Assembly: GCA_964649615.1 (NCBI GenBank)
Contig: CAZYPW010000002.1
Location: 66,969-130,968 of the forward strand
Direction of reading: 5' to 3'
Origin: an uncultured Gammaproteobacteria bacterium
GTDB lineage: Bacteria; Patescibacteriota; Microgenomatia; Daviesbacterales; UBA10151
DNA: 64,000 bases
Position numbers and translations under genes: made by a program. How positions within the stretch are numbered: position 1 is the stretch's first letter; every line of letters begins with the position of its first letter. Positions 23,922 to 64,000 of this stretch are shown piece by piece. Under the pieces are notes generated by a model. It was not told the DNA's origin, searched no databases, and saw nothing but the letters and a program-made list of their open reading frames with translations.

Positions 23922-24220
23922 TAACGGATATATTGTATATTGGTTAGCTTAGAAAAACCAAGGCTAGCAGATGATGAAGCAATAGTTGATAAAGAGGACC
24001 CCTGGGCAATTTGGTTTTCCAGGATTCGATTTTCTTGTGTCAAATTTTTTCTAATAGCCTGCAAGGATTCAAATTTTTGGCCATAAGTGACTGTGGTATT
24101 ACTAACCCAAATTTCCAGCATCACTAGAGAAAACAGTCCAAAAATTGAGAGGACTATATATTTTTTGCTAAGCCTACTTGGTTTTATTTCTTCTGTGTCA
24201 AATTTTTTAATTATAGTCAT
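23921..24220 (-). CDS. ftsL: FtsL-like septum-formation bitopic protein
   Basis: A 99-aa protein with a single TM and a coiled-coil region, in the position between rsmH and ftsI. Confidence 0.6.
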   Translation of the reverse strand: MTIIKKFDTEEIKPSRLSKKYIVLSIFGLFSLVMLEIWVSNTTVTYGQKFESLQAIRKNLTQENRILENQIAQGSSLSTIASSSASLGFSKLTNIQYIR

Positions 24221-45037: not shown

Positions 45038-46561
45038 TTAATTTCTCTTAATATATGCCCTATATCCACCTTCTTTAATGGAAGATATACCCAACAGGTC
45101 CTCTGATAAAGGTATTCTATCTTCAGATAAAATTATAGTGTAAACAGGAAACCTTTTACTAATCTCGTCAGGATACAGCCACCCTAAACTGTTATCAGTA
45201 TAACTTTGATCAGGAACTCTTCCATATGCTTTAAATAAATATCTCCATCCCTCATAGTTATGGCATATTCCCCTTCCTTCAATAGCAAAACTTTTATCAC
45301 CTACCATACCCATTACTTTATTAATTAACTTTTCTTTAGGGCCTAAACTAAATTCATCTGATGAATTTAAGACTGTATTAATGCCCAAGAGAGAAACAAT
45401 TAATATTAAACCAAAGGCAATCCACTTCATTTTTTTGTTTAGTTCCCCTATCAAAATTGCTGGTACAAAAATAAAGAGAGCGAGAAAAACTAAAGTATAA
45501 TATTCATAAGAACCCCCAGGATAAATAAGATAAAAAAGGGCCGAGACAGTTAAAAATAGGGCTAAAAGTTTATTAGGAAATTTCCTACTATTTAAATTTT
45601 TTCCTATGAAATATAAAACTAATCCTAGAGAAATTATGGATAACCAAGAGGGAGAATATGTTCTTTGGGTATATTTATTAATTACTTCATAACCTGTTGA
45701 TAAAGATAAGGCTGAACAGCCAAAATTTACTTCATCTGCATTAGGAGCTCCAGGTTTTAAATGCCAAAATCGACCCATGCTATCAAATAACGTTCCAAAT
45801 TTTTCTGGTGGATTAAAACTAACCTGTAATTGATGGTTACTTTCCAAAAGTTTACTAAGAACTCTCAAATTACTGAAATTATGGTTCATATCAAAAATAA
45901 TTAGTGGCCAGTAAAAGATTAGAAAAGCAGCTGAGCATAAGATGATTAACTTAATATCCTTAAAGTGCTTATCCTTTATAAAGTACCAGACACCTATCAA
46001 AAGAAGTGGAAAGGGGGGTAGATGGGTTTCAAAGATAAGTCCTGCTAGTCCTGCAAATAAAATCCACCACCATTTATTTTTTTTTACTAATACTAAGGAT
46101 AAAAATAAAAGCACTGCTACTGAAGGCCCAAACATGGGGTTCCAGTATTTTTGATCAAAGAAAACAAACAAAGGTAAAGTTGCATATAATAAAGAAGAAA
46201 TAACTGCCACAGTCAAATTAAAAACTCTTTTTCCTGCCAAAAAAATAACTGCTGTAGTAATTACTCCTAAAAAGGCTGCAAAATAGGCAGTAATTAAAGG
46301 ATCTCCTCTTGATAAAGCCAAAAGGATAGCTGTTAAGTAGACTACATAGGGCCCAATATAAAATTCTAAAGCAGCTGCAACCAAACCAATCCAAATAGGA
46401 TGAGGGTTCAAAACTTGAGTCCAAGCATAAGTGGCTTGATATTCTTCATCTAAATTAAATACATATAAATCAGGCAAACGGTTAAACCTTAAAAAAGCAG
46501 AAATAATTATGATAATTATTAAAAATAGATAAACTCGATATTTTTTTATTAAAGTCCACAT
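45038..46561 (-). CDS. GT-C fold membrane glycosyltransferase, paralog A (507 aa)
   Basis: A DEE loop (FNLDEEYQATYAW). It is about 65% identical to the ORF at 49046..50584, including the C-terminal motif FAIEGRGICHNYEGWRYLFK. Confidence 0.55.
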   Translation of the reverse strand: MWTLIKKYRVYLFLIIIIIISAFLRFNRLPDLYVFNLDEEYQATYAWTQVLNPHPIWIGLVAAALEFYIGPYVVYLTAILLALSRGDPLITAYFAAFLGVITTAVIFLAGKRVFNLTVAVISSLLYATLPLFVFFDQKYWNPMFGPSVAVLLFLSLVLVKKNKWWWILFAGLAGLIFETHLPPFPLLLIGVWYFIKDKHFKDIKLIILCSAAFLIFYWPLIIFDMNHNFSNLRVLSKLLESNHQLQVSFNPPEKFGTLFDSMGRFWHLKPGAPNADEVNFGCSALSLSTGYEVINKYTQRTYSPSWLSIISLGLVLYFIGKNLNSRKFPNKLLALFLTVSALFYLIYPGGSYEYYTLVFLALFIFVPAILIGELNKKMKWIAFGLILIVSLLGINTVLNSSDEFSLGPKEKLINKVMGMVGDKSFAIEGRGICHNYEGWRYLFKAYGRVPDQSYTDNSLGWLYPDEISKRFPVYTIILSEDRIPLSEDLLGISSIKEGGYRAYIKRN

Positions 46562-49045: not shown

Positions 49046-50584
49046 TTATTCTTCCTTTCTTATATAGACTCTATATCCTCCAGCTTTAAAAGACTGTAAC
49101 GTTGATAAATCTTCATTCAAAGGTATTCTATCTTCTGAAAGAATAACTGTATACTCTACCTTTATTTTACTTATTTCACTGGGATATAACCATCCTAGGC
49201 TACTATCTGTATAGCTTTGAGCAGGTGTTCTTCCATATACCTTAAATAAATATCTCCAACCTTCATAGTTATGGCATATTCCCCTTCCTTCAATAGCAAA
49301 GCTATCACCTACCACACTCATTACTTTACTAATTAACTGCCTTTTAGGGCCTAAACTAAATTCATCAGAGGTTCTTAAAACAGTATTAATGCCTAAAAAA
49401 GAAATAATAAATATTAGAATTAGTGAAAACAGCTGCTGTCTTTTTTTAAGCCCACTAATTAATATTCCAGGTACAAATATAAATAACACCATAATAGAAA
49501 GAGTGTAGTATTCTGAAGAAGCCCCGGGATAAATTACAAATGAAAGAAGCGCCACTAATAGAAAAAGGGCCAATAATTTATACTCTTTATTTTTACTGCT
49601 TTTGCTTACCCAAAAGAAATAAATAAGTAAAAATAAAGTTAGTATAGATAAGAGGGATGGGGCATCTGTTCTACTAGAGTGAAGATCCATATTTTTAAAT
49701 TCTGATTTAATTGTTAGAGGGTTGCAGCTAAAATTTATTTCATCTGCATTTGGGTTTCCAGCTCTCAAGTACCAGAATCTTCCCAGGCTATCAAAAAGGG
49801 ATTTAAACTTCGTCTCTGGATCAAATGCAATCTTCGATTGGCTAAAACTACTTTTAATCCGGGCAAAAGCAGTTAAATTACTAAAATCATGGTTAAGATC
49901 AAAAACAATAAGCGGCCAATAAAAAAATAAAAATACTAAAACACAACTCAAAAATAATTTTAAATTCTTAAAATATTTATCTTTTAAAAAGAAAAATAAT
50001 CCTATTAGGAAAAGGGGGGCGGGTATTAGATGAGTCTCTAAAACCACTCCAAAAAGTGCTGCATATAAAATCCAAAACCAAGCATTTTTTTTAATTAAAA
50101 CAATTGTCAATAGTAAAAGAACTGTTATTAGATTGGAAAACATAGTATTCCAATATTTTTGATCATAAAAAACAAATAAGGGTAAGGTGGCATATAATAA
50201 TGAGGCTACAGCTCCTGTGGTTAGATTAAATATTTTCCAGCCTACAAAAAATATAACAGTTGTAGTAATCACACCCAAAAATGCAGCAAAGTAGGCAGTA
50301 ATCATTGGGTCACCTGAAGATAACCAAAGAAGGAATGCGCTAAAGTAGGTAAAATAAGGTCCTAGATAAAATTCTAAAAAAGAGGCGCTTACACCAATCC
50401 AGATAGGATGAGGGTCTAAAACTTGGGTCCAGGCATAAGTTGCTTGATACTCTTCATCAAAATTAAATACATAAATATTATTTAAATTATAAAACCGTAA
50501 GAAAGCCGAAAGCCCAACAATTACACTTATTAAAATATAAATTTTAAATTTTTTAAGTAATGTAAAAATACTCATTTTAATCAA
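49046..50584 (-). CDS. GT-C fold membrane glycosyltransferase, paralog B (512 aa)
   Basis: FNFDEEYQATYAWTQVLDPHPIWIG…, which is nearly the same as in paralog A. A shared 38-nt identical stretch lies at 49263-49300 and 45252-45289. Confidence 0.55.
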   Translation of the reverse strand: MIKMSIFTLLKKFKIYILISVIVGLSAFLRFYNLNNIYVFNFDEEYQATYAWTQVLDPHPIWIGVSASFLEFYLGPYFTYFSAFLLWLSSGDPMITAYFAAFLGVITTTVIFFVGWKIFNLTTGAVASLLYATLPLFVFYDQKYWNTMFSNLITVLLLLTIVLIKKNAWFWILYAALFGVVLETHLIPAPLFLIGLFFFLKDKYFKNLKLFLSCVLVFLFFYWPLIVFDLNHDFSNLTAFARIKSSFSQSKIAFDPETKFKSLFDSLGRFWYLRAGNPNADEINFSCNPLTIKSEFKNMDLHSSRTDAPSLLSILTLFLLIYFFWVSKSSKNKEYKLLALFLLVALLSFVIYPGASSEYYTLSIMVLFIFVPGILISGLKKRQQLFSLILIFIISFLGINTVLRTSDEFSLGPKRQLISKVMSVVGDSFAIEGRGICHNYEGWRYLFKVYGRTPAQSYTDSSLGWLYPSEISKIKVEYTVILSEDRIPLNEDLSTLQSFKAGGYRVYIRKEE

Positions 50585-51281
50585 AAAATCTATATCTAAA
50601 AATTGTCCAAACAGCTTTTAGTCCATCAAAAAAATTAATCTTCTTGCCCTCCTCGTAAGTTCTTGGTATAACCTTTATAGGAATCTCCAATATTTTGGCT
50701 CCTTTTTTTAAAAACTTGGCAGTTATTTCAGGCTCAAACTCAAACCCCCTGCTTTTTAGTTTAATTCCGTCAAGGCAGCTTTTTCTAAAAACTTTATAAC
50801 ATGTTTCCATATCAGTCAGGTTGGAATTAAAAAGCAAATTGGTAAGATTTGTTAAAATCTTATTAGCAATCAAATGGGAAGGCAAAATAGTTTTATTCTT
50901 ACCCCAAAACCTAAGAGGATAATCTATGAGCCTGCTTCCATATACTACTTTTGTACGGTTTTGCAGAATTGGTTTAAGTAAAATAGGGTAGTAACTGGGA
51001 TCATATTCTAAATCAGCATCTTGAATAAGGATGATATCCCCCGCTGCAATTTTTAATCCATCTCTTATAGCTGTGCCTTTTCCTAAATTATTTTCATGAA
51101 AAATTTTTTTTATACCCCTCTCATCTCTTATTTCTTTAGAAGTGGCGTCTGTTGAGCCATCATCAACAACAATAATTTCTTTTTTAATCAGGCCTGGTAA
51201 TTTAACAGCATAAACTCTTCTTAAAATTTCATTGATAGTTTTCTCCTCATTAAAGACTGGAATAATTATCGATAAAATCAT
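50577..51281 (-). CDS. GT2 polyprenyl-phosphate glycosyltransferase (DPM1/GtrB/CsbB-like)
   Basis: ILSIIIPVFNEE, VVDDGSTDAT and LIQDADLEY. Confidence 0.75.
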   Translation of the reverse strand: MILSIIIPVFNEEKTINEILRRVYAVKLPGLIKKEIIVVDDGSTDATSKEIRDERGIKKIFHENNLGKGTAIRDGLKIAAGDIILIQDADLEYDPSYYPILLKPILQNRTKVVYGSRLIDYPLRFWGKNKTILPSHLIANKILTNLTNLLFNSNLTDMETCYKVFRKSCLDGIKLKSRGFEFEPEITAKFLKKGAKILEIPIKVIPRTYEEGKKINFFDGLKAVWTIFRYRFFD

Positions 51282-51973
51282 TTGTTAATTTTTCTGGCAA
51301 TAACCAATATAGAAGTTCCCACTGGTGGCTCAAAAATATTTTCAAGCAATAAAAAAATGGGAGAGATTAGATTAAATATTTTAATTTTTCCTTCACTAAC
51401 TTGGGTTTCTTTAAAAAATTTACCTGCAATGAACCATCCGATACTTCCTAGAAAATTTAAGTTTCTAATTTTAACTATTTCAAAATTGCACTCTTTTAGT
51501 AATCTTTCCAATTGTCCCCTTTCGTAACGCCGATAATGACCAATAGATTGATCAATTAAGTTATAAAGAAATTGATGTGCAGGCACAAGTAAAATTAGAA
51601 TTCTATTAGTTGCTAATAATTTATGAATATTTTTAAGGGCTGCTTTATCATCCTTAATATGTTCTAAAACATTTATGCAAACTACAGTACTGAAATTTCT
51701 TTCCTTAAAAAAATACTTTCCACTTTCAACATCTCCAAACCCAATTTGGGCTTTACCTTGAACCCGTTTTTTAGCCTCTTTTATATAATCTTCATTTATA
51801 TCTATAGCTAATAAATGCCCATACTTTGCTAGAAAACTGGTAAAATTACCTATTCCGCAACCAATTTCCAAAATAGGAGGAGTTAAATAATTACTAAATT
51901 GCTTCTTGGTCCATCTGTTATACCAGGTGGCTTGGCTCATTGATTCTAAAGTTTTGCTGGATTGATCAATCAT
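51278..51973 (-). CDS. Class I SAM-dependent methyltransferase
   Basis: ILEIGCGIGNFTSFLAKYG, the glycine-rich motif I. Confidence 0.75.
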   Translation of the reverse strand: MIDQSSKTLESMSQATWYNRWTKKQFSNYLTPPILEIGCGIGNFTSFLAKYGHLLAIDINEDYIKEAKKRVQGKAQIGFGDVESGKYFFKERNFSTVVCINVLEHIKDDKAALKNIHKLLATNRILILLVPAHQFLYNLIDQSIGHYRRYERGQLERLLKECNFEIVKIRNLNFLGSIGWFIAGKFFKETQVSEGKIKIFNLISPIFLLLENIFEPPVGTSILVIARKINK

Positions 51974-52761
51974 AGAATTATTCTCTTTATTTTTCTCAAG
52001 GGGGTTAACATTTTAGCTGTGAGATATTTCAAACCAGAAATTTTTGTCCAGGGAGAGGCAATAAATTCAGGATTTTGATATAAAACTTCTGGAAATTTAA
52101 ATCCATCTTTCACTTGATTCCCTATTTCATACTTAAATTTATCATATTCTCTTTTTTTAGAAGATCTTTTTAAATGAGTTACATGCAAAAATGGAGCATC
52201 CAAAAAAATAATCTTTTCTCTTTCCTGAATTAATTTTCCTTTATTATCAAAAAAGCCCTCTTTTCCGTAAGGCCAATCTAAATGTAGGCCAGAAATACTC
52301 TTACTGAAGGCTTTTAAACTCAAATGCCCGGTTTTGCCTAAAATTTTATATCTGCCTGCTTTCTCATCCTGTAAATGATAAATATCGCCAACTGGAACCA
52401 CCATGGGTACAACTATGCCTTCAATTTTACTGCCAATTTTCTTAATTTCCTTTACCAGACTGTTAATAGAATCTTTCCACCAGATCTCATCTCCATCTAA
52501 AATTAGTATCCAGTCTGCCCTTGACTCTTCAAGCATCTTCTGGCGCATTTTAGTAAACTCAAGGGGGGTAACCTTTCCCACCTGTTTAAACTCAATCTTC
52601 TCTCCTTTAATCTTTTTTAACTCTTTTATAATATCTACAGTTCTGTCTTTAGATCCTGTATCATAAATCAATACTTTATCTACATAATCCACCACACTCA
52701 TGACTGCAAAATACAAAAAATTTTCTTCATTATTCACAATAGTATTAGCCCAAACTTTCAC
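51970..52761 (-). CDS. GT2-like glycosyltransferase
   Basis: LIYDTGSKDRT and ILILDGDE (DxD). Confidence 0.55.
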   Translation of the reverse strand: MKVWANTIVNNEENFLYFAVMSVVDYVDKVLIYDTGSKDRTVDIIKELKKIKGEKIEFKQVGKVTPLEFTKMRQKMLEESRADWILILDGDEIWWKDSINSLVKEIKKIGSKIEGIVVPMVVPVGDIYHLQDEKAGRYKILGKTGHLSLKAFSKSISGLHLDWPYGKEGFFDNKGKLIQEREKIIFLDAPFLHVTHLKRSSKKREYDKFKYEIGNQVKDGFKFPEVLYQNPEFIASPWTKISGLKYLTAKMLTPLRKIKRIIL

Positions 52762-54023
52762 TTTGATTTCCTTAATTTAAATATTAACCAAATTAGAGGA
52801 TAGAGAAAATTAAAAGTCGTACCAGCTAATACTGTTAAAGATGCACCAATAACTCCATAACTTTGTATCATCAGATAACCTAAACTTCCGATTAATAATA
52901 AATGCCCAATTGATACCCATATAAAAACATCTGGCCTGCCAAAATAAAAAATAACACTATGGTGCACTGGTAAAGAGATTAGGAAAACAAGCATTGCTAG
53001 GAATAAAAATATAAATGGCATAATTACCTCCTGGTAGTTTGAACCTAAAAGTATTGGAATAAGATATATTAAGATAGGAATTGTTAAAATGCCCAATAAA
53101 CATAGGCTCAAAACAAACAGTTGGAATTTTTTAAAATAAACTAACATATCTTTACTGCTTTGAAATGAGGCAAATTTTGGTGCTGCCACTAGCCCCAAAG
53201 CAGAAACCAGTTGCGGCATAACTTGAACCAGTTGAGTCGCAGCTCCATAAATTCCTACCTCCCTGCTAGAAAGTAGCGCCGCGTTTAAATAAATATCTAA
53301 TCGGGCGGAAAATGCAGCTATAGCGGTGAAGACAGCAACAGGAATATTATACTTAAATAATTCTTTAGACAAACTAAATTCATCCTTGCTTGCTAAAATT
53401 TTCCTGGAGGGAAGGATAAAAAGAGTTACAAAAAAACCAAAAAATGGCATTAATATATATACTAATAGGCTGTTTTCAACATTAAGCATAAGAAAATACG
53501 CTAGTATAAGTATCAAGATTAATCTTAAAGAGTTAGTAAAAATATTCATCGCACTCCAAAGGAAATATTTCTGGTATGCCTGTAAAGAGGAAGTTGCAAA
53601 GCTAAAAAGTAAAGCTCCTCCTATACCAAAGCAGATTAATCTTAACGGTAAAATTAACTCCGCCTTATGAAAAACTTCAGTTGCTAAAAATGGAGCTAAA
53701 AAGAAAATAATCAAAGAGGATACAAACCAAGCCATCAATTTTATTTCCAGGCTTAGTTTTAAAAATTGGTATGCTTTTATGCTATTTACTGCCAAATTTG
53801 AAGATACAAAACGAATTAATCCGGTATTTGTCCCTAAATCTACTATATCTGCAATTAAAACTAGAGTTGTCAGGGCAATTGTGAGTAATCCAAAATCAGA
53901 GGGACCTAGCAGTCTTGCTAAGATTACATAGAATAAGGCTCCTAAAACCCCATTAATAAGCGTACCAAAAACTGTAATTTGAGATTGTTTAAAAGTGGCT
54001 GTTCTAATAATAGATCTGAGCAT
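52758..54023 (-). CDS. wzx: Wzx-type polysaccharide flippase (MOP superfamily)
   Basis: About 12 TM segments, with the N-terminus FGTLINGVLGALFYVILARLLGPSDFGLL typical of the Polysacc_synt family. Confidence 0.65.
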   Translation of the reverse strand: MLRSIIRTATFKQSQITVFGTLINGVLGALFYVILARLLGPSDFGLLTIALTTLVLIADIVDLGTNTGLIRFVSSNLAVNSIKAYQFLKLSLEIKLMAWFVSSLIIFFLAPFLATEVFHKAELILPLRLICFGIGGALLFSFATSSLQAYQKYFLWSAMNIFTNSLRLILILILAYFLMLNVENSLLVYILMPFFGFFVTLFILPSRKILASKDEFSLSKELFKYNIPVAVFTAIAAFSARLDIYLNAALLSSREVGIYGAATQLVQVMPQLVSALGLVAAPKFASFQSSKDMLVYFKKFQLFVLSLCLLGILTIPILIYLIPILLGSNYQEVIMPFIFLFLAMLVFLISLPVHHSVIFYFGRPDVFIWVSIGHLLLIGSLGYLMIQSYGVIGASLTVLAGTTFNFLYPLIWLIFKLRKSK

Positions 54024-54030
54024 ATAGCCA

Positions 54031-56715
54031 TTATATAGTTAAATTTTTAGATTTGCTGTATCTTATTAAAAGTAATATTAATATAAGAACTGTCAGGGAA
54101 GAAATTATCAATCCAAAGTTAACATATTTCTGGGCCTCAAATTCCACAATATATTGTCCATCTTTATCAATTTTATATCCATTCAATAAACTATATACTG
54201 GCAGGGAAGGCTGACCATTCATCTTCCATAGAGAATCATAGTTTTGAGAAAAAACCAAAAATGATTCTCCTGCTAAACCCTCAATAGTTACTATATATTT
54301 AGTAGGATCTATCTTCTGATAAGTTATCTTTGGATTATTTGTATTATTAATATTTACATTAGCAAAATCCAAAACTCTATCCTGTAAGCTCTTTGCTTTA
54401 TCCTGATAATTGAGCCATTCGTTTTTATCTATAGTTACTAATGCATTGACTACATTAATTGGTCCTGTAGAACTTATTTGTAAATCTTCTCCATCTTTTG
54501 GCAACTCCCCAACTTCAAACCATCTAATATTAGTCTTAGCTTCTACCTTAGTTGTTATTTCCCCAATCAATTGATCATCCTGATAAAATTTTAAATCTCC
54601 ACTTCTTGAACTCTCCATTACTCTTACCAAAAGTATGTCATCTTTTTTCACTTTTAACTTTTCATTTTTCACTTTTAACTTTAAATTTCCCTCTCCAACT
54701 GCCCAGCCACCGCCTAAATCAAAATCTTGATTATCAATCTGGTATTTGTTAACTAAAAAATCCCTCCATCTACCTAAATCAGCTGACTCCCTTTTCCACC
54801 AGCCGCTTTGATTAGGTTCAAAATCCAGTTGGTTAGCAGGAAAAATTAAATCAGAAACTTTTATAAAACTGGCTGCCAAATCCACTTCAGTTTTATTATT
54901 TAAAATAATTTTGGCAGTGGGTAATTCATCAATTCTTTTTCCTAGCCCTGGGGATTCTTCTGCAAAAATTAGGGCATTTTTTGATAATTGTAAATTTGCA
55001 CTTTTAGTTGCTTCCTTATAAATACTGTCAGATCCAATTACCCACCATATATTAGAGGGAGCAAAAAATCTATCTTGATGTTTAGTAGTTTTTAGAACAG
55101 GTATTTTCAGAGAATCTACTTTTGAAAGCCAGGGTAATTTGGAGAGCTGATCCAAAAAAAGATAATAATATCTAATATTATCTGGGTGCAAATTATCACG
55201 TCTTTGGTTCAGATATGGATAAACTATATATCCTATTCCTGCTACATCAAAAATTTCCCCCATATATGGAGCTTCTCTTAAGTAGTTAAGGGTTTCATAA
55301 CTTCCTGTTATTCCTACTGCAAATGGTCTCTTTTGAGCATATCTTGATGCTTCGAGTAATGGATGGTTATTACTTACATGTCCAAGAGGCGCCTTAGTGG
55401 GAATCCAAAAAACTCTTGAGTAATTATGGTCATTTTTAAGATATTCACTTAACTCCAAATATTCAAGAATAAATAATGGCTGGGAAAGTAATCCAGTCAT
55501 TTGACCTAAAAAAGCAGGCCTTATTAACCATACAAAATATATCAAAATTAAATATGGGATTATCTTAAAAATATAGCTTTTAAATTTACTTTTTCTTAAA
55601 CTAATTTCCTGAATAGTTATAGCTATCAGAACACTGTAAGCTAAACATATATAAAAGTAGAACTTTGTGGGATCCCTAAAAAGGGAGAATCCAGGGATAT
55701 GCGTAAATAACCAAGAATAAATTTGCCCAAAAGGATTCTGTGATCCCTTAGATAAAAAGACACCTAAAACTGCAACAATCAACCAAAAACCAACAACTTT
55801 ATCTTTCCTCCGCAAAATTGGCGCAAGAAAAACTAAGATTGGAATAAAAATAAAATCCCATCCTAGATTAGATATTTGTCCAAAAATGTTTTTATACCAA
55901 TGGGGTTGTTGTAGCAATAGTGCATGGCCAACTGAAGAAAAACTTAAGAAATCAACCTGAGAAATTCTTTCATAAGTTTGTGGCAATTGGGGAGTCTTTA
56001 TTAAAATTGAAGGCAATATCCAATATGCATGAAATGAAATTAGTACAACTGCAAGAAACATCATACCTAAAAAAGATTGTTTAATTAACTCTAATCTTTT
56101 ACCTATTTTTCTAAAAATTTCAAAAATGAAGCTTAAAAATAATATGGGTATTAAAAGATAAATAAATCTAATATCTAAAATTGATATTAGTAGAATTGAA
56201 GAAGTAAAATATAATTTATATCTGAAACTGTAAACATCCATCATTTTCAAAAAGAGATAAAAAACTAACGGTGAAATGGCATAAACTAAAGCTAAAGAAA
56301 TCTGTCCTCCATCAAAAAGTAAAATAAAATAGCTATTTGCTAGATAAAAAAAGATTCCTAAATATTTTCCAAAACCTTTAATATTAAAGAACCCAAGCAG
56401 TTTTGATGAAGAAAAAAATCCTATTAAAAATACCAGTCCACCCATTAATTTTGTTTGCATGGATGGTGGAATTGATAAAGCTGAAAGAATACTAAATAAA
56501 GAGTGAAGTGGTTGAGCCCAAAGAGTTATGCCAGTGTACTCACCTAAACCATCAGCTACATTTGTTTCTCTAAAGATCCAGGGAATTATCTGTTCTGATA
56601 CAGGAACATCATGCGGTAGGTGATAATCATTAGCTACTCTTACACCCGGTATCCAAAATATCCAAAAGGTAGAAATAAATAGCAGTAAAATTAAAATTGT
56701 AAATTTTTTGTCCAT
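54031..56715 (-). CDS. Giant membrane protein, paralog C (894 aa). It has a polytopic N-terminal domain, a large extracytoplasmic domain and a C-terminal TM anchor. Putative YfhO/GT-C-like glycosyltransferase.
   Basis: Its architecture and its conserved C-terminal module (…NGYKIDKDGQYIVEFEAQKYV…+TM) are shared with the ORFs at 56888..60325 and 60679..64000. Confidence 0.45.
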   Translation of the reverse strand: MDKKFTILILLLFISTFWIFWIPGVRVANDYHLPHDVPVSEQIIPWIFRETNVADGLGEYTGITLWAQPLHSLFSILSALSIPPSMQTKLMGGLVFLIGFFSSSKLLGFFNIKGFGKYLGIFFYLANSYFILLFDGGQISLALVYAISPLVFYLFLKMMDVYSFRYKLYFTSSILLISILDIRFIYLLIPILFLSFIFEIFRKIGKRLELIKQSFLGMMFLAVVLISFHAYWILPSILIKTPQLPQTYERISQVDFLSFSSVGHALLLQQPHWYKNIFGQISNLGWDFIFIPILVFLAPILRRKDKVVGFWLIVAVLGVFLSKGSQNPFGQIYSWLFTHIPGFSLFRDPTKFYFYICLAYSVLIAITIQEISLRKSKFKSYIFKIIPYLILIYFVWLIRPAFLGQMTGLLSQPLFILEYLELSEYLKNDHNYSRVFWIPTKAPLGHVSNNHPLLEASRYAQKRPFAVGITGSYETLNYLREAPYMGEIFDVAGIGYIVYPYLNQRRDNLHPDNIRYYYLFLDQLSKLPWLSKVDSLKIPVLKTTKHQDRFFAPSNIWWVIGSDSIYKEATKSANLQLSKNALIFAEESPGLGKRIDELPTAKIILNNKTEVDLAASFIKVSDLIFPANQLDFEPNQSGWWKRESADLGRWRDFLVNKYQIDNQDFDLGGGWAVGEGNLKLKVKNEKLKVKKDDILLVRVMESSRSGDLKFYQDDQLIGEITTKVEAKTNIRWFEVGELPKDGEDLQISSTGPINVVNALVTIDKNEWLNYQDKAKSLQDRVLDFANVNINNTNNPKITYQKIDPTKYIVTIEGLAGESFLVFSQNYDSLWKMNGQPSLPVYSLLNGYKIDKDGQYIVEFEAQKYVNFGLIISSLTVLILILLLIRYSKSKNLTI

Positions 56716-56717
56716 AT

Positions 56718-56888
56718 CTATTTACTCAATCTTAAAATATAGAAAACTGTTCCTAGAATAATTAAAATGAAAATATATTCAGAAAAAATTAGTGCAAAAC
56801 CAAAATGATTGGTAATTAGTATTAATCCTAAAAGTAACAATTCCAAAACTGAAAGGATAAATATATTTTGTATTAACTGATTATTCAT
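56718..56888 (-). CDS. Unannotated 56-aa two-TM peptide (MNNQLIQNIFILSVLELLLLGLILITNHFGFALIFSEYIFILIILGTVFYILRLSK)
   Basis: A hand translation. Its ATG overlaps the TGA of the upstream giant gene (TGATG), and its stop lies 2 nt before the start of the next giant gene. It is absent from the ORF track because it falls below the apparent ~60-aa reporting cutoff. Confidence 0.4.
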   Translation of the reverse strand: MNNQLIQNIFILSVLELLLLGLILITNHFGFALIFSEYIFILIILGTVFYILRLSK

Positions 56889-59800
56889 CAATGCTTTCTG
56901 GATTTGAAATCTTTTATAAATATAACTATCAATAAAATTATAAAACTAATTCCGGCAATGATGAAACCTTTATATACACTTTTTTGCGGCTCAAATTCAA
57001 GATCAAATGTATAGTCTCCTGCTTTATCAACAAACCAGGCATTTCCATAAAGATTTGCCAAGATGTGCTTATCCGGAGTAACTACTGTCCCGTCTGATGA
57101 TTTTAGTTTAAGTTTCCATCCCGGATGATAAGTCTCATTAAAAAGAAAAAAAGCAGGTTTAATTAACTTGAAATTACCTTTGTATGAGCTGGAAGTTTGT
57201 TTACTGAAATCTGGTAATGTTTCATCTGATCTAGAATTTATATTATTTTTATTTTCACTCATTAAGATAAGCGAATTATTTAAAAATCTTTCTATCTTCA
57301 GGTTTCTGATAGACATTGCCGAAATATCGGCCAGTGCAAATCTAATTGTTGCTTTCTGACTCATTGAATTTAAAGGTGGCAATGTAAAGTTAAAGCTTTG
57401 CCAATCATTTGAACTGTTCTGGGGAATAAATTGGTTTATGCGAAATTCTTTTCTTCCTGACAAATCTAAAGTATCTGTATCTTGCTCTAATTGAAGGTAA
57501 AAACCACTACCCTTAAGCATCTTAGTTTCAAAACTTATTTGATAAATATCACCTCCTGAAACATTCCCTAAATTTGCATCTAAGAATGTCTCCTTTTGTC
57601 CGCTGGTAGATAAATTAATAATAGATTCGTCCTGTTGTTTAACATCGCCAGATGCATTTAATGCATTTGGCAAAGATACCAGGTTTAAACCGGAAGGAAT
57701 AAAGTAGCTGATTTCGTACTCTCCCGGATTAAGTTCCACTTCTCCAAAAGCTATAAAATTAGCCTCTTTTTTACCTGCTAACAAAAACTGTTGATGATTA
57801 ATTTGAAAATTAAGCTCCGTCAGGTTGTCTGAATACTTATTTTGGATTTGAGAATTAGTCATCAAAATTTGATAATGCGCGCGCTCGGGTATCTTAAATT
57901 TAAAAATTTGTCTAAGCAGGCTTGATGACTTCAGATCACTAACAGAGTAGCGGGAGATCAGATCGTTGCTTACCAGACTTTCCCTTAAGCTGGTAGCTAT
58001 ATCATCTATTTCTTTAGTGCTTAAAAAAGTTTTAATTTGCTCAAGTATTGATAAGTGTTGTTTGAAAATAGATGAAATAGTAGATTCATTAATAAAAATA
58101 AATATTCGTGATGTATGAATATCTTTTCTAAATATTTCTGCTACTTTTTTCCCATAAGCTTTTATTAAATCTTTATTCATTTCTTTTTGATTGTTGTTAA
58201 ATGCATTAATAATTTCAATCATTGTTTGGTTCGCTGAAATAATTTTACCTACCATTTCTTCAGCCTGAATTTCTCCGTATTGGCTTAATATACTGCGGCT
58301 TTTTTCCAGTTGGCTTATGGGAGAATTTTCATTACCGGGATCTAAAGAGGCGCTGTTTGTAGACTCATCAGATAAAAGAAAAGTTCTTGGTAGAATTATT
58401 GTCTGGTTGCTGTTACTTAAAGTCGAATCATCTAAAAGATCACCAATTGGCGATATAAAATTATTTTCCTTACCTAATAACCAAGGCCATATAAAACTGC
58501 TCTTTCCCGGAAGGACAACTCCAATATTATCGGTAATAATTATTTTATGTTTATAATACTCATCTTTAACCCGATAAATCCTAAGGTCACCAAATTCAAC
58601 TCTTTTATCTAAAAAAGTCAGCTTATTAAGTATTCCTTCGGTTTCAGCCGGATCATATAAATTACCCCCTCTCCACTCAATATCCTTATGGAGAATTATA
58701 AATTTTATATTAAATGCTTGAAGTAATTCTAAAATTTTATTTGGGTTCCCTGTATATGGAGCATGGAAGATAAGGGATAGTGCTGACAAACTGGCAGAAA
58801 CCATCGGTAAGTCTAAACCTCTGGCAATAGAAGGCAGAGAGGTGAATATAGCTGCAGATGGCTCTACCCCATTGTAACCTTTTGGCCAATTATATTTAAC
58901 ATCCTCCGATCTAGGCAGCGGCAGATGAAGAATTCTTCCTTCCGACATACCCGCAGTTACTTTAATATCTTGTTTAATCCACTCATTAGCTTCAGTGTAG
59001 CTTTTGGGAACTTCCACAAATGCCGGCCTGTCTAAACTGCCAAATAGTTTTCCTGTAAACATAGGGTGGAAAAATGCTAAATGAAGACCAATAAAAACTA
59101 CCAATAATAGGTACGTTTTATACCTGCCAATATATTTACTAGAGGTAATGAATAAAAAATGTAGCCCAAGGGCAAACAAGATGGCAAAAACTAAAGGAAG
59201 TAGAATACCTAATTTCTCAAAAGGGTTTCTGATCACTCCCAACGGGAAAAAATGAGAGAAGCCGTAGATATAGGGAAAGTTAAAAGGAGCCGCTGCACCT
59301 TTTGCCAGAAAAACTACAATTAGAAAAAGCAGACTCCAAAAAGCATATGCTTTTTCTTTAAATCCTCTTAAAAAGCCGATAAATACTATCACTGCAAACA
59401 ACCAGGATACTGCAACAAGGAATATATTTTGATAAATGCTCCCCCAGTCAGCATGCCAATATAGGTAGAAAGGATTAATTAGACGGAGGGTAAAAGGGAG
59501 AACGGTTTGTATGCTTAAAGCAACCAGGTTAGTTAAACTATCATCTATGGTATGTTGGGTAGCAAATAAAGCAGGACTGATGCTGAAGGTGGGAATCAGC
59601 CACCAGCTATTGGTTAAAAGCCAGAACAGTAGTCCCATTAAAAAAGCAAAGAATATTTTAAGGGTAGTCTCCTTACCTTTCCAGGGCACTAATACTTCCA
59701 ATAAGGTTATTGAAAAAAGTAATGTCCAAACAGCTACAATAAAGGCTATCGTTCCATAAACATAAACTGCTAAAAAATTGGCTAGAAGAAAAAGCAGTAA

Positions 59801-60325
59801 AAATTTAGGATCACGTTTCCGTATCCACCAAAGCCAAGTCAATACCAAAAAGGGCAAAAATGCCACAAAAACCATAGAGTTATGAATAAATCTATGCCAG
59901 ATTTGAATCATCATGTATGGGTTAAAGACATAAAATATTCCGGCTGCGTAAGCTAACAGGATTTTATCTTTCCCAAAGATATACAAAGCCAGAAGATACA
60001 TGCCATAACCAATCAGAAATAACAGAATAAAAAACAGAAAAGCCTGGATAAAAACAGGGCTTGCCCCTAAAGCTTGAGGGATAGATAAAAACAACATCAG
60101 GGGGACTGAAGTTAATCCCTGGGCTACAGGAATACCCGGAGCCAGAGAATCCCACCAGATATTTTTGGCAATATTCACTGCAACCTGGGGACTGTATGTT
60201 GGCAGACCCGTATCCCCACCTCCATACATATATCCAAACCTAAACCAGCAAAATATTAATCCTGCAGAAAGGAGTAAAAAGATAAGAGGTGGAAGTAATG
60301 CTACTTTCTTCATCAAAAGTCTCAA
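56888..60325 (-). CDS. Giant membrane protein, paralog B (1145 aa). It has a polytopic N-terminal domain, an ~750-aa extracytoplasmic domain and a C-terminal TM.
   Basis: An ORF with at least 12 N-terminal hydrophobic segments and the C-terminal module LANLYGNAWFVDKAGDYTFDLEFEPQKSV+TM. Residues ~88-263 are encoded by a tract 100% identical to the one in paralog A. Confidence 0.5.
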   Translation of the reverse strand: MRLLMKKVALLPPLIFLLLSAGLIFCWFRFGYMYGGGDTGLPTYSPQVAVNIAKNIWWDSLAPGIPVAQGLTSVPLMLFLSIPQALGASPVFIQAFLFFILLFLIGYGMYLLALYIFGKDKILLAYAAGIFYVFNPYMMIQIWHRFIHNSMVFVAFLPFLVLTWLWWIRKRDPKFLLLFLLANFLAVYVYGTIAFIVAVWTLLFSITLLEVLVPWKGKETTLKIFFAFLMGLLFWLLTNSWWLIPTFSISPALFATQHTIDDSLTNLVALSIQTVLPFTLRLINPFYLYWHADWGSIYQNIFLVAVSWLFAVIVFIGFLRGFKEKAYAFWSLLFLIVVFLAKGAAAPFNFPYIYGFSHFFPLGVIRNPFEKLGILLPLVFAILFALGLHFLFITSSKYIGRYKTYLLLVVFIGLHLAFFHPMFTGKLFGSLDRPAFVEVPKSYTEANEWIKQDIKVTAGMSEGRILHLPLPRSEDVKYNWPKGYNGVEPSAAIFTSLPSIARGLDLPMVSASLSALSLIFHAPYTGNPNKILELLQAFNIKFIILHKDIEWRGGNLYDPAETEGILNKLTFLDKRVEFGDLRIYRVKDEYYKHKIIITDNIGVVLPGKSSFIWPWLLGKENNFISPIGDLLDDSTLSNSNQTIILPRTFLLSDESTNSASLDPGNENSPISQLEKSRSILSQYGEIQAEEMVGKIISANQTMIEIINAFNNNQKEMNKDLIKAYGKKVAEIFRKDIHTSRIFIFINESTISSIFKQHLSILEQIKTFLSTKEIDDIATSLRESLVSNDLISRYSVSDLKSSSLLRQIFKFKIPERAHYQILMTNSQIQNKYSDNLTELNFQINHQQFLLAGKKEANFIAFGEVELNPGEYEISYFIPSGLNLVSLPNALNASGDVKQQDESIINLSTSGQKETFLDANLGNVSGGDIYQISFETKMLKGSGFYLQLEQDTDTLDLSGRKEFRINQFIPQNSSNDWQSFNFTLPPLNSMSQKATIRFALADISAMSIRNLKIERFLNNSLILMSENKNNINSRSDETLPDFSKQTSSSYKGNFKLIKPAFFLFNETYHPGWKLKLKSSDGTVVTPDKHILANLYGNAWFVDKAGDYTFDLEFEPQKSVYKGFIIAGISFIILLIVIFIKDFKSRKH
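59535..60062. repeat. A 528-bp tract 100% identical to 63473-64000, lying inside giant paralog B
   Basis: A base-by-base comparison shows a sharp boundary at 59534/59535 against 63472/63473, where identity drops from 100% to ~75%. Confidence 0.9.
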
Positions 60326-60673
60326 TTAAAATTTTTCAATATAACCTTTTTTGATAATTTTAGGAAGGTATAAAACAATTGTTATCACCAGTAAACTAAA
60401 TCCAAAATCACCGATAACTTTAGAAAAATTTGGCAGATTTAGAAGATTAAATATCATCATTAACACCAAACAAAAACCAGTCATAAAAAGAATAAAGCGT
60501 CTAAAATTCGGTTTAAAAACCATTATGGTTGTAAGTATGGAGAGTAATAAAGGTTGCGGTAATCTTTCCCAAGAGTCAAAATTAAATCCATATTCAAGAA
60601 TATAAAATATCCCCAGTAGAAAAATTGTAGTTAAAAACGGCTTTAATATTAAGTAGCTGCGGAGTGATTTCAT
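60326..60673 (-). CDS. Small 3-4 TM membrane protein (115 aa), possibly a GtrA-like lipid-linked sugar flippase
   Basis: Hydrophobic profile. Its stop directly abuts the start of the giant gene at 60323-60325. Confidence 0.4.
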   Translation of the reverse strand: MKSLRSYLILKPFLTTIFLLGIFYILEYGFNFDSWERLPQPLLLSILTTIMVFKPNFRRFILFMTGFCLVLMMIFNLLNLPNFSKVIGDFGFSLLVITIVLYLPKIIKKGYIEKF

Positions 60674-60678
60674 AAAAT

Positions 60679-63600
60679 TTAGGAAACTTTACGGAAATAT
60701 AATCTTATTACCAGTATTAAGGCTACTATAACCCATCCTGAAATAGCAAACAATATGGCTATTTTAATGAATTTTTGCGGACTGTAGTTTAGGGTGAAGT
60801 CATAATCCCCTGTTTTTTCTATCACCCAGGCATTCGCATATGAATTGGCAAGCAAATGTTCTCGGGGCCGATAAATTTCTTTCCCGTTATATAACGATAA
60901 CTCCCAACCCGGATCAAAGGATTCCTTAAAAAATATCCATGTTGGTCTGATAATTCTTACCTTACCCAGATATTGGCTAGAACTTAATTTTTGGGCTTCC
61001 AGCACCATGCCGGAAGGGGAAGCTGATTGAACCAACGCTAAATCGGCTCTCAAGAAAATATCATTATTTAATATCCTTACTACATTTATATTTCTAATAA
61101 GAAACCTGGAAGATTGATTATAAGTTTTACTTACTTTTTCATCTGCGCATTTCTTTTTATCGCCTAATACTGTCAGACAATCATCCCAAGGCTCCGCCTG
61201 AATTCTTAGCTTGGCCTTTTGGGTATTTGATCTTAAAACTACATTCCCTTCAAAACGGCGCCATTGGTTGCTGGCGGAACTGCCTGGAAAATAGTAGTTG
61301 TTGTAACCTAAACCTAACTCATCGGGATCGCTACTCAACTGATCCGTATCCTGACTGACTTGTACCCTGATCCCTATTCCTGATAGCAATTGAAAATCAA
61401 AGCTTATCAGATAACTGTCTCCTCCGTAGGCGGGATCAATATTACTCTCAATATATGAAGAGTCTTGCTTTCCGGAAATTATTTCCACAATACCTAAATC
61501 AGAAACACGAACATCACCAACCTTATTCATTAAAGATATGCTGGAAACAAGATTTATGGATGGTAATCCCAAAATGTTCATTGAGTGCTCACCGGATTCT
61601 ATCTGAACTTCCCCGAAAGACATTAATTTTTGCTCACCCTCTTGAGTCATCCTCATTCGCTGATCATCAACCTGAAAATCCAACTCCGACAAATTATTTG
61701 GATATATATTCTTCGTTTCGGGCCTATTCATTAAAACCTCATAGTTTAATCTTAGGGGGATACTAAAAAGATACAGCTGATTATACTGCTGGTTTGATAT
61801 ATCTTCATTTTTTAACTGATGCTCCGGGATTAATCCCTTCGCAACTAATAATTTGGTAATTAGTATAGTTAAATTATCTATTGTTTTTTTCTCATTTTGA
61901 TCCGATATTCCGCCTTTAATGTAATTTAACAGGCCCAAATGCCTTAAAAACACATCTAAGGTATCAGCTTGATAGCCGTTTATAACAACAGCATCAGGTA
62001 CGAATACCTCATCAAAAATCTCTATGAGAATTTTTCTATACCTTTCAATTTGTAAATCACCCAACTTCTTACCTTTCTCCTTACTGATAATCCCCGATTC
62101 CTCCATCCTGCGAATTTTATACATTTCCACCAGTCTTTTTTCAGCATAGATTATCTTTCTCTGCTGTATCTCAAACTGGCTTTTTGCAATCAAACTTAAA
62201 GATTCTTTGATCTCCAGCAGGAAATAAAACGGCGATGTTGGCAGTATCCGGATATGATTAAAATTCTCGAGATTCCCATGAAATTCAGGGACCTCAAAAT
62301 TCCTGGATAATTCGCCTCTTTCAGAGGATATAATAATTTTGTCAATCTTGTTTATTAGACTTTTGTCTTGTTCTTCGGATAAAGCACTCACCATCTCTGC
62401 CGACGGCGTACTGACTATCCAGGACCAGAAGAGATTCTTCCTTGCAGGTTTAAGCAATTCGACATTATCGGAAATTATTATCTTGGGGCTAAAATAATCC
62501 GTTTTCAATTTGTAGATGGTTAAGTTTTCAAATATTACTGCCTTTTCCAAAAATTCCCATTTGTTAAGAAAGTTTTCTGTTTCGTAGGGACTATATAACT
62601 CCCCGTTCAACCAGTTAATATCTTTATGCAAGATAATATATTTAATATTAAAATCCTTGAGCATCTTCAGTATAACCTCCTGATTTGAAGCATATGGAGT
62701 ATGGAATATTAAAGATAGTCCTGATAGAGCATCACTCACTCCCGGAACAGCTAAACCTCTGGCAATTGAGGGTAGGGAGGTAAATATAGCCGCAGATGGC
62801 TCTACCCCATTGTAGCCATACTGCCAGTTGTAGCTGACTGCTTCTGATTTAGGTAAAGGCAGATGAAGAATCCTCCCCTCCCAACTATTGGTAGTATTGC
62901 CAAGATCTCTCTTAATCCAATCATTGGCTTGGGTATAACTTTTAGGTACCTCAACAAAATTCTGCTTGTCCAAAGTACCAAACAACTTCCCGGCAAACAT
63001 AGGCCAAAAAAAGCTCATATAAAAACAGACAATAATTCCCAGTACACAGTATGCCCTAAACCTACCAATATATTTATCGAGCTGCATTAATACCCACCGC
63101 AATCCCAAGGCAAACAAGATGGCAAAAACCAAAGGCAGTAAAATACCCAACTTTTCAAAAGGATTCCTGATGACTCCCAATGGAAAAAAATTAGAGAAGC
63201 CAAATATATATGGAAAAGAAAAAGGGGGTGCTGCCCCTTTGCCTAAAAATATCACTATCAGAAAAAGTAAACTCCAAAAAGCATATGCTTTTTTTTTAAG
63301 GCCTTTGATAAAGCCGATAAATACAAAAAGTAGCGGTATCCAGGAGATTAGGTTAAATAATAAAGTGTGATAGATATTCCCAAAGTCAGCATGCCAGTAT
63401 AGGTAGAAGGGGTTAATTAAACGTAAGGTGTAGGGTAAGATTGTTTGGGCAGAAAGAGATATTAATGTAGACAAACTATCATCTATGGTATGTTGGGTAG
63501 CAAATAAAGCAGGACTGATGCTGAAGGTGGGAATCAGCCACCAGCTATTGGTTAAAAGCCAGAACAGTAGTCCCATTAAAAAAGCAAAGAATATTTTAAG

Positions 63601-64000
63601 GGTAGTCTCCTTACCTTTCCAGGGCACTAATACTTCCAATAAGGTTATTGAAAAAAGTAATGTCCAAACAGCTACAATAAAGGCTATCGTTCCATAAACA
63701 TAAACTGCTAAAAAATTGGCTAGAAGAAAAAGCAGTAAAAATTTAGGATCACGTTTCCGTATCCACCAAAGCCAAGTCAATACCAAAAAGGGCAAAAATG
63801 CCACAAAAACCATAGAGTTATGAATAAATCTATGCCAGATTTGAATCATCATGTATGGGTTAAAGACATAAAATATTCCGGCTGCGTAAGCTAACAGGAT
63901 TTTATCTTTCCCAAAGATATACAAAGCCAGAAGATACATGCCATAACCAATCAGAAATAACAGAATAAAAAACAGAAAAGCCTGGATAAAAACAGGGCTT
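60679..64000 (-). CDS. Giant membrane protein, paralog A (>=1107 aa). Its N-terminus lies beyond the window edge.
   Basis: The frame stays open to position 64000 and keeps matching paralog B (…LIGYGMYLLALYIFG…), so the real start is outside the window. The C-terminal module is LANSYANAWVIEKTGDYDFTLNYSPQKF+TM. Confidence 0.5.
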   Translation of the reverse strand, partial: SPVFIQAFLFFILLFLIGYGMYLLALYIFGKDKILLAYAAGIFYVFNPYMMIQIWHRFIHNSMVFVAFLPFLVLTWLWWIRKRDPKFLLLFLLANFLAVYVYGTIAFIVAVWTLLFSITLLEVLVPWKGKETTLKIFFAFLMGLLFWLLTNSWWLIPTFSISPALFATQHTIDDSLSTLISLSAQTILPYTLRLINPFYLYWHADFGNIYHTLLFNLISWIPLLFVFIGFIKGLKKKAYAFWSLLFLIVIFLGKGAAPPFSFPYIFGFSNFFPLGVIRNPFEKLGILLPLVFAILFALGLRWVLMQLDKYIGRFRAYCVLGIIVCFYMSFFWPMFAGKLFGTLDKQNFVEVPKSYTQANDWIKRDLGNTTNSWEGRILHLPLPKSEAVSYNWQYGYNGVEPSAAIFTSLPSIARGLAVPGVSDALSGLSLIFHTPYASNQEVILKMLKDFNIKYIILHKDINWLNGELYSPYETENFLNKWEFLEKAVIFENLTIYKLKTDYFSPKIIISDNVELLKPARKNLFWSWIVSTPSAEMVSALSEEQDKSLINKIDKIIISSERGELSRNFEVPEFHGNLENFNHIRILPTSPFYFLLEIKESLSLIAKSQFEIQQRKIIYAEKRLVEMYKIRRMEESGIISKEKGKKLGDLQIERYRKILIEIFDEVFVPDAVVINGYQADTLDVFLRHLGLLNYIKGGISDQNEKKTIDNLTILITKLLVAKGLIPEHQLKNEDISNQQYNQLYLFSIPLRLNYEVLMNRPETKNIYPNNLSELDFQVDDQRMRMTQEGEQKLMSFGEVQIESGEHSMNILGLPSINLVSSISLMNKVGDVRVSDLGIVEIISGKQDSSYIESNIDPAYGGDSYLISFDFQLLSGIGIRVQVSQDTDQLSSDPDELGLGYNNYYFPGSSASNQWRRFEGNVVLRSNTQKAKLRIQAEPWDDCLTVLGDKKKCADEKVSKTYNQSSRFLIRNINVVRILNNDIFLRADLALVQSASPSGMVLEAQKLSSSQYLGKVRIIRPTWIFFKESFDPGWELSLYNGKEIYRPREHLLANSYANAWVIEKTGDYDFTLNYSPQKFIKIAILFAISGWVIVALILVIRLYFRKVS
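63473..64000. repeat. Second copy of the identical tract, inside giant paralog A and truncated by the window end
   Basis: As above. Confidence 0.9.

Follow-up and report, generated by a model that had tools for sequence, protein, structure and literature searches.

The DNA analysed here is a stretch of 64,000 nucleotides (nt) from contig CAZYPW010000002.1, hereafter called the window, to whose positions the coordinates refer. It ends in a tightly packed operon on the minus strand (49046-64000) that encodes three giant membrane proteins, G1, G2 and G3, predicted to be AftD-like glycosyltransferases of the GT-C type. Read 5′ to 3′, the gene order is G3, s115, G2, s57, G1, a Wzx-type flippase, the glycosyltransferase GT2a, a methyltransferase, the glycosyltransferase GT2b and a PMT_2-like protein. 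G3 (60679 to >64000, minus strand) has 1106 codons in the window and its 5′ end lies beyond it; the full-length protein, P0002, has 1191 amino acids (aa) and is encoded on the same 137.8-kb NCBI contig. G2 (56888-60325, minus strand) has 1145 aa when read from a TTG codon, its likely start being the ATG at 60313, which gives 1141 aa, as called in P0001. G1 (54031-56715, minus strand) has 894 aa and is the most divergent paralog. Two small genes, also on the minus strand, are interleaved with the giants: s115 (60326-60673) encodes a 115-aa protein with four transmembrane (TM) helices and the C-terminal motif GxFGF...YLPxIIKKGYIEKF, and s57 (56718-56891) encodes a two-TM hairpin with an NHxGFA turn, 57 aa long if read from a TTG and 56 aa from the ATG at 56888. 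The stop codon of G2 and the start codon of s57 overlap as TGATG, the remaining gaps around the giants are 2-12 nt, and GTGA and ATGA overlaps are found further downstream. Open reading frames and junctions bear out an earlier preliminary description of this DNA, according to which three consecutive giants alternate with small TM genes and their start and stop codons abut or overlap. That description had placed the Wzx and GT2 genes upstream of the giants; since the operon is on the minus strand, these genes are actually downstream (3′).

Architecture and predicted fold of the giant proteins

The relationship between the three giants was assessed by pairwise and profile alignments. An alignment of G2 with G3 extends over 1105 aa at 51% identity (E = 0). 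G1 aligns with G2 in two places, a 271-aa stretch of the TM domain (27% identity, E = 2e-14) and the C-terminal module, and alignment of the G1-family and G2-family profiles with hhalign gave a probability of 99.9% (E = 1e-31) over 400 columns. To judge from these alignments, the three proteins are paralogs, far beyond what chance would give. AlphaFold2 (AF2) models, which rest on alignments of 36 homologs for the G2 family and 33 for the G1 family, were combined with charge counts. Together they yield an N-terminal part with 11 TM helices, then 459-688 aa of soluble domain and a single TM helix at the C-terminus, the common architecture (polytopic N-terminus, big outer domain, C-terminal TM helix) that had been proposed for all three. 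The C-terminal motif NxYxNAW..K.GDY.F.L.[FY].PQK that had been assigned to the whole trio is exact in G2 and G3 and merely loose in G1 (LLNGYKIDKDGQYIVEFEAQK). G2 and G3 also hold a helical insertion, DUF5667-like in homologs, and a DUF5667 match was obtained for 9 of the 36 G2-family members.

Model helices and charge counts orient the 11-helix membrane domain with its N-terminus inside. The inside loops are short and rich in lysine and arginine (GKDK, RKRDPK, WKGKE and RGFKEK in G2; RRKDK and RKSKFK in G1), and the first outside loop, which is 62 aa long, is acidic. By the positive-inside rule, the 459-688-aa domain is extracytoplasmic, and the lone C-terminal helix is followed by a basic tail. 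The large domain had been thought to lie outside, not in the cytoplasm, and the topology derived here agrees.

The models of G2 (predicted local distance difference test score, pLDDT, 82.8; predicted TM-score, pTM, 0.79) and of G1 (pLDDT 85.1, pTM 0.82) were compared with the PDB using Foldseek. The top match of the G2 model was AftD of Mycobacterium abscessus (6W98, E = 4e-16), STT3 and PglB coming at 1e-6 or weaker. AftD was also the top match of the G1 model (E = 2.9e-11, query TM-score, TMq, 0.51), with STT3 at about 1e-3. Behind AftD, the fold matches of the two models were STT3, AftA, ALG12, AglB, Pmt4, ArnT and PglB. The C-terminal domains of the modelled giants were matched by folds of carbohydrate-binding modules (CBM4/6/16/22/29), and the soluble domain of G1 is complete, with CBM6-like modules, according to its model and the fold search.

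Profile searches were carried out on the giants and on their homologs. Pfam GT-C_AftD (PF11847, formerly DUF3367) is matched by 20 of the 36 G2-family members; P0003, which shares 50% identity with G2, reaches 40.3 bits (cut-off 26 bits), and its match is collinear over residues 88-581. The same profile is matched weakly by 4 of the 33 G1-family members, and not at all by G1, G2 and G3 themselves at E ≤ 1. G1 has a local NCBIfam match to MmpA (1e-9 over 80 residues, 37 bits for a cut-off of 210 bits), which fits kinship with AftD, whose first 11 TM helices MmpA is reported to resemble. Some public annotations of homologs already read 'DUF3367' or 'alpha-(1->3)-arabinofuranosyltransferase family'. 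As for other GT-C families, the YfhO hidden Markov model (HMM; PF09586) has no match in G1-G3 or in 69 family members, and an identity of the giants with YfhO, PMT_2 (PF13231) or DUF2079-type proteins was rejected, no match at all being obtained. As modelled, the giants are AftD-type GT-C proteins that stand at or just past the edge of PF11847. The preliminary description could not assign them to a named family; they can be named as GT-C_AftD (PF11847/DUF3367)-related, and not as YfhO or PMT_2 proteins.

The essential residues of M. abscessus AftD are K39, D41, E251, K361 and D474, of which D41 is in outside loop 1 (bioRxiv 10.1101/2019.12.22.885152). Loop 1 of the giants also carries an Asp, D38 in the G2 family (at least 90% conserved) and D30 in the G1 family (invariant), and the two residues are paired by hhalign. 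Their position makes D38 and D30 candidates for the counterpart of AftD D41. A GT-C fold with a conserved Asp in loop 1 had been suggested as a feature to look for by structure prediction, and both modelled giants, G1 and G2, have it. The conserved outer-face residues of the G2 family are YGGGD38, W143-H-R-F146, K342-G343, R366-N-P-F-E370-K371 and, in the soluble domain, H546-K547-D548; those of the G1 family are D30, D135-G-G-Q138 and D181/R183. When the giant sequences were read for a WWDYG-type motif after the last TM helix, none was found. Loop 1 of G2 and G3 contains the only WWD; in G1, a GWWKRE occurs at residues 638-643, 235 aa past TM11.

Small membrane proteins paired with the giants

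The product of s115 belongs to a family, s110a, of four-TM proteins of ~105-120 aa with the motif GSxGFG...YLPxLIKKGYIEK. Members are encoded directly after close G2-type giants in 25 of 28 instances, and a related type, s110b, directly after divergent G2-type giants in 22 of 34. The s110 subtype co-varies with the subtype of the G2-type giant, and the pairing is one to one. The product of s57 belongs to the s56 family (~50-60 aa, two-TM hairpin, NHxGFA turn; 28 orthologs in the alignment), whose genes lie directly before those of G1-type giants in 43 of 65. In two loci, L074 (6716-9454) and L059 (9629-12427), s56 is naturally fused in frame to the N-terminus of the G1-type protein, the N-in topology being kept. 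These fusions are direct genomic evidence that s56 and G1 would act together in the membrane. Gene calls often pass over s56: in L081 (GCA_041643115.1), a 54-aa member at 9507-9671 falls within an 'intergenic' stretch of 147 nt and does not figure in the deposited calls. The s56 family therefore seems to be missed by annotation pipelines, which agrees with the earlier remark that the 56-aa gene of the window was unannotated.

The s110a family forms 97 clusters among 1.84 billion representative proteins, all of them stand-alone. No Pfam family was accepted for it, and its profile gave no sequence match in the PDB. Among 20 s110a members, there was no match at E ≤ 1 to GtrA (PF04138) or to any other flippase family, and s115 and s57 show no sequence similarity to the GacJ or GtrA families. 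A GtrA identity of s115 was rejected on the basis of the 20 members, and the likeness to GtrA systems drawn in the preliminary description needs correction in that the small proteins are not GtrA homologs. A match of s115 to Dpy19 (E = 0.003, 1 of 20 members) was set aside as TM-composition noise. The idea of a 'split AftD', in which s110 would correspond to the C-terminal four-helix bundle of AftD, was tested and, while still conceivable, gained no support: the s110 profile has no PDB match, the 97 clusters contain no fusion, and none of the giants in 81 loci has an s110-like C-terminus.

An exact repeat shared by G2 and G3

The genes of G2 and G3 are identical at all 528 positions of a direct repeat located in the membrane domain. 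The G2 copy (59535-60062), which extends over TM2-TM7, shows zero mismatches with the G3 copy (63473-64000), which runs off the end of the window. Outside this tract, DNA identity falls sharply to 60-80%, and the protein identity of the ectodomains is 20-35%. Tracts of other lengths exist in two sister genomes (P0003/P0007, aa 50-230; L012, aa 50-560), and eight more distant genomes show ~50% identity all through the membrane domain. In three related genomes, the conversion tracts are confined to the N-terminal membrane domain. The comparison indicates that the 528-nt tract is the product of a recent gene conversion of the membrane domain. An alternative to gene conversion is that the repeat is an assembly chimera, given that the source contig is metagenome-assembled and that exact repeats are open to mis-joining. 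I consider this alternative highly improbable. A Logan contig assembled independently (L004, SRR12113430) matches the window at 100% identity for 8415 nt and stops exactly 30 nt inside the G2 copy, at 59564; with k = 31, a stop at 30 nt (k-1) is the behaviour expected at a true repeat branch. The tracts found in L012 and P0003/P0007 differ in length, and both reading frames remain intact. A second s110 gene is missing in the tract-bearing genomes (the window, L012 and L081). This loss would be understandable if two enzymes whose membrane domains are identical made use of the same s110, but it is only suggestive because it is probably a single ancestral loss.

Distribution of the cassette

The closest homologs of the giants are found in Candidatus Daviesbacteria and other Microgenomates. 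When GTDB species genomes were scanned with the G1 profile, 76 loci were retrieved, from Davies-, Woese- and Amesbacteria and from unnamed Patescibacteria. The tandem trio (G2-type, G2-type, G1-type) is characteristic of one Daviesbacteria subclade; the broader pattern is a pair formed by a divergent G2-type giant and G1, and some genomes have the order G2'-G1-G2. Neighbours were counted in the 57 loci that have at least 6 kb of flank past G1. The genes downstream of G1 include GT2a in 53 of these loci, Wzx in 50, GT2b in 49, the methyltransferase in 41 and the PMT_2-like gene in 10, and Wzx comes directly after G1 in most loci, with codons that often overlap. The cassette is thus conserved among the sampled Microgenomates and no one-off; the preliminary description had suggested checking conservation and co-variation, and the trio or pair occurs with Wzx, GT2a and GT2b in 49-53 of the 57 related loci.

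The cassette has been rearranged several times. The Daviesbacteria loci L016, L023, L028 and L039 have the order divergent G2', s110b, s56, G1 and a second G2-type gene; the start of the latter lies within ~10 nt of the G1 stop in L016, L023 and L028 (with an overlap in L028) and 224 nt from it in L039. Many metagenome-assembled genomes that carry the cassette (L006, L008, L011 and others; binchicken assemblies) are deposited as 'uncultured Gammaproteobacteria bacterium', although both the cassette and the genes around it are of a kind typical for Microgenomates. The 'Gammaproteobacteria' record name looks like a placeholder or a mislabel.

Candidate donor genes and surrounding glycan island

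Downstream of G1, still on the minus strand, the operon encodes a 421-aa Wzx-type flippase of the multidrug/oligosaccharidyl-lipid/polysaccharide (MOP) type (52758-54023; Pfam Polysacc_synt, 1e-19), the soluble GT2 glycosyltransferase GT2a of 263 aa (51970-52761; Pfam Glycos_transf_2, 1e-13), an S-adenosylmethionine-dependent methyltransferase of 231 aa (51278-51973; Pfam Methyltransf_23/11/12/25) and GT2b, a GT2 enzyme of 234 aa (50577-51281; Pfam GT2, 6e-33). GT2b is DPM1/AglJ/PpgS-like and a candidate polyprenyl-phosphate-sugar synthase; its NCBIfam matches are AglJ (6e-33), PpgS (1e-16) and dolichyl-P-hexose transferase (3e-11), all of them under the curated cut-offs. The last gene, also on the minus strand, encodes a PMT_2-like polytopic protein of 512 aa (49046-50584; Pfam PMT_2, E = 0.004, below threshold), a further candidate GT-C protein. 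Pfam and NCBIfam scans of the operon genes (49046-64000) revealed no GtrA homolog. Ahead of G3, the sister genome L081 has a GT1 gene and two GT2 genes.

The region from 28 to 49 kb is a glycan island that contains a DUF4012 gene, an initiating transferase of the Bac_transf type, several GT4 and GT2 genes, a Wzy_C protein, acetyltransferases, a DegT aminotransferase and four PMT_2-type genes. With the last gene of the operon, PMT_2-type polytopic proteins are encoded at 34383-35846, 40591-41955, 41930-43366, 45038-46561 and 49046-50584, three of them above the Pfam gathering score. The five PMT_2-type proteins and the three AftD-like giants make eight GT-C candidates in ~30 kb, in a lineage known for small genomes. 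The Wzy_C protein (O-antigen ligase/polymerase-like) is encoded at 35848-37269 and the Bac_transf initiating phosphoglycosyl transferase at 30355-30993. At the promoter-distal end of the island is the gene of the 627-aa DUF4012 protein (28467-30350), which adjoins recO (27802-28467). A few kb 3′ of the island, and sharing its strand, is a division and cell wall (dcw) cluster (14904-25095), which comprises MraW, an FtsI-like penicillin-binding protein, two Mur ligases, MurA, MraY and FtsW. The reading frames at 25606-26523 (305 aa) and 37266-37814 (182 aa) have no Pfam match, and tRNA and Rfam scans of the window detected a tRNA-Val alone.

Discussion

The interpretation that I hold to be reasonably probable is that the giants are glycan glycosyltransferases of the AftD type, dependent on a polyprenyl-phosphate sugar and equipped with dedicated small subunits. 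That they are GT-C-like enzymes had already been put forward, and fold, topology, loop-1 Asp and co-occurring genes support it. With GT2b, the Wzx-type MOP protein and the GT-C giants, a single operon contains all three component types of a transmembrane glycosylation system with multiple components. In the proposed mechanism, the DPM1/AglJ-like GT2b would charge polyprenyl phosphate with a sugar at the cytoplasmic face, the lipid-linked sugar would be flipped, possibly by the operon's Wzx-type protein, as proposed for GacK in Streptococcus, and each giant would then move the sugar onto a growing cell-surface glycan held by its CBM-like domains, the loop-1 Asp taking part in catalysis. The CBM-like domains point to a glycan acceptor, and nothing was found in support of the S-layer acceptor that had been envisaged. 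The three paralogs would share a donor-side membrane module, which is partly literally identical, while their ectodomains have diverged. Since this divergence has reached 20-35% identity, the sugar that the paralogs add is probably the same or similar, and they would differ in the acceptor position or linkage that they serve. As for the small proteins, they would be dedicated membrane subunits and not general flippases, s110 working with the G2-type giants and s56 with G1. Given a DPM1-like GT2 as the conserved donor enzyme, arabinofuranose is probably not the sugar, and a hexose donor route is likely. None of the decaprenyl-phospho-arabinose pathway genes was seen in the scanned parts of the island (~27800-64000), and UbiA-type and DprE-type proteins had no match among ~40 scanned window proteins.

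Several points weigh against this interpretation. G1, G2 and G3 reach no Pfam or NCBIfam threshold. Sequence searches of the PDB with G1, G2 and P0091 as single queries and with the G2-family profile did not reach AftD, so that the link to AftD was found solely by fold comparison and by Pfam matches of homologs. The putative equivalence of D38 and D30 with AftD D41 is positional. Neither the loci that were fetched nor the 97 representative clusters of s110a contain a G2::s110 fusion, and it is therefore adjacency alone that designates s110 as a subunit. The role of Wzx is ambiguous, since the Bac_transf and Wzy_C proteins of the island represent a Wzx/Wzy-type route which could provide its substrate.

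In a different view, the giants could resemble oligosaccharyltransferases or ligases and transfer a whole oligosaccharide, linked to undecaprenyl diphosphate and flipped by Wzx, onto a protein (S-layer protein or pilin) or a wall polymer. Such enzymes would go well with the presence of Wzx directly after G1 in most loci, often with overlapping codons, and with the Bac_transf, GT4 and Wzy_C genes of the island, which suggest a Wzx/Wzy-type pathway. I nevertheless find this unlikely: sequence matches go to PF11847 and not to STT3, the WWDYG-type motif is missing past the last TM helix, the CBM-like domains favour a glycan over a peptide acceptor, and a DPM1-like GT2 is conserved in the cassette. 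It is also improbable that the ~110-aa four-TM proteins, and possibly the 56-aa hairpins, are donor flippases of the GtrA/SMR kind, that is, the third component of the system and not subunits. Their size and four-TM topology do match GtrA-type proteins (PMC8035078), and the scanned operon genes include no GtrA homolog that could fill this role. Against it stand the 20 members without a match to GtrA or another flippase family, the occurrence of s56 fused to G1, the Wzx-type flippase already present in the operon, and the one-to-one pairing with G2-type giants, when known systems share one flippase among several GT-C enzymes (PMC8035078).

A last alternative is suggested by the local match of G1 to MmpA at 1e-9. 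One or more of the giants, especially G1, might be a non-catalytic GT-C-like scaffold or a lipid-handling protein, by analogy with corynebacterial MmpA, which is homologous to the TM domain of AftD and for which no transferase activity has been shown (bioRxiv 10.64898/2026.07.31.741767). This is very hard to reconcile with G1, which keeps the invariant loop-1 Asp, further invariant residues of the outside loops (DGGQ at 135-138, D181/R183) and a complete soluble domain containing CBM6-like modules, and whose MmpA match spans merely 80 residues at 37 bits for a 210-bit cut-off; moreover, Foldseek searches suggest that MmpA may itself be a glycosyltransferase (bioRxiv 10.64898/2026.07.31.741767).

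If the giants are glycosyltransferases with small subunits, a more specific proposal can be made, which I advance as a tentative possibility. The giants may be heteromeric, s110 and s56 being obligate subunits that complete the membrane domain, like the extra C-terminal helices of AftD or Ost4 for STT3, and the paralog set, with its membrane donor module homogenised by gene conversion and its diversified CBM ectodomains, may build a wall glycopolymer specific to Microgenomates. If so, this glycopolymer would be the functional counterpart of arabinan or of teichoic-acid decoration in bacteria with ~1-Mb genomes, and the loss of the second s110 gene in the window, L012 and L081, exactly those genomes whose two G2-type membrane domains became identical, would mean that one s110 serves both enzymes through their shared domain.

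AftD-type enzymes are known as essential arabinan builders in mycobacteria. Here, a conserved operon of Microgenomates (Davies-, Woese- and Amesbacteria) is built around enzymes predicted to be of this type. The hosts are uncultivated small-genome bacteria whose envelope chemistry is essentially unexplored, and the genome of the window devotes more than 10 kb to the three giants and has five more candidate GT-C genes of the PMT_2 type nearby, next to the dcw cluster. The operon provides concrete and testable candidates for a surface glycopolymer specific to the candidate phyla radiation (CPR). It also defines two conserved families of small proteins, one of which is routinely missed by gene callers, and offers a natural experiment in modular GT-C evolution, in which gene conversion would preserve the identity of the donor module as the acceptor modules drift apart. 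A search of the literature on DUF3367, on GT-C enzymes in Patescibacteria and on AftD-type enzymes in CPR bacteria found nothing on this system.

Among known systems, AftD of the Mycobacteriales (6W98), the best structural match of both G2 and G1, is the closest in architecture: like the giants, it combines a GT-C core of 11 TM helices with an acidic residue in outside loop 1, a big outer domain with beta-sandwich CBMs and a C-terminal membrane anchor, and close G2 homologs exceed the PF11847 threshold. AftD works with the partner proteins ACP and TmaT (bioRxiv 10.1101/2019.12.22.885152; bioRxiv 10.64898/2026.07.31.741767). The giants differ from it in sequence (~10-14% identity, the window giants being under the HMM thresholds), in the C-terminal TM region, which in AftD has an ACP-binding four-helix bundle and in the models of the giants is a single helix, in the helical, DUF5667-like (in homologs) insertion of G2 and G3, and in their arrangement as tandem paralogs with small TM proteins alongside. 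They also differ in host: AftD homologs are reported only in Actinobacteria (bioRxiv 10.1101/2019.12.22.885152), whereas the host here is a Microgenomates (CPR) bacterium.

The preliminary description had likened the operon to the GtrB/CsbB, GtrA and YfhO/GT-C logic. The extracytoplasmic polyprenyl-phosphate-sugar scheme with a GT-C enzyme is supported, but the operon is closer to GacI/GacJ/GacK/GacL than to classical GtrA/B systems (PMC8035078). The Gac proteins perform the side-chain glycosylation of the rhamnose polysaccharide of Streptococcus pyogenes, with a Wzx-type protein as proposed flippase (PMC8035078). Both sets combine a soluble DPM1-like GT2, a Wzx-type flippase, a GT-C enzyme acting outside and a small TM protein (PMC8035078). 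GacL, however, is a PMT_2-type GT-C protein of ordinary size, whereas the GT-C enzymes here are of the AftD type and triplicated, and GacJ assists the GT2 enzyme, whereas the small proteins here sit with the GT-C enzymes, s56 being sometimes fused to one. YfhO, a GT-C enzyme that uses C55-P-N-acetylglucosamine (C55-P-GlcNAc; PMC8035078), represents the GlcNAc transferases of lipoteichoic and wall teichoic acids in Firmicutes. It resembles the giants in its G1-like size and in its polytopic N-terminus, large outer domain and C-terminal TM helix, but the 69 family members have no YfhO HMM match, and no solved YfhO structure is among the PDB fold matches. The eukaryotic oligosaccharyltransferase STT3 with its mini-subunit Ost4 differs from the operon, the giants having no WWDYG motif and no sequence relation to STT3, and another class of donor being expected. 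The working logic of the operon is thus already known, from AftD-like and multi-component transmembrane glycosylation systems generally. With respect to the searchable literature, the novelty lies in the host lineage, in a C-terminal TM region reduced to one helix, in a donor route likely to use a hexose and not arabinofuranose, in tandem paralogs whose donor module has undergone gene conversion, and in the two families of small proteins, including their natural fusions.

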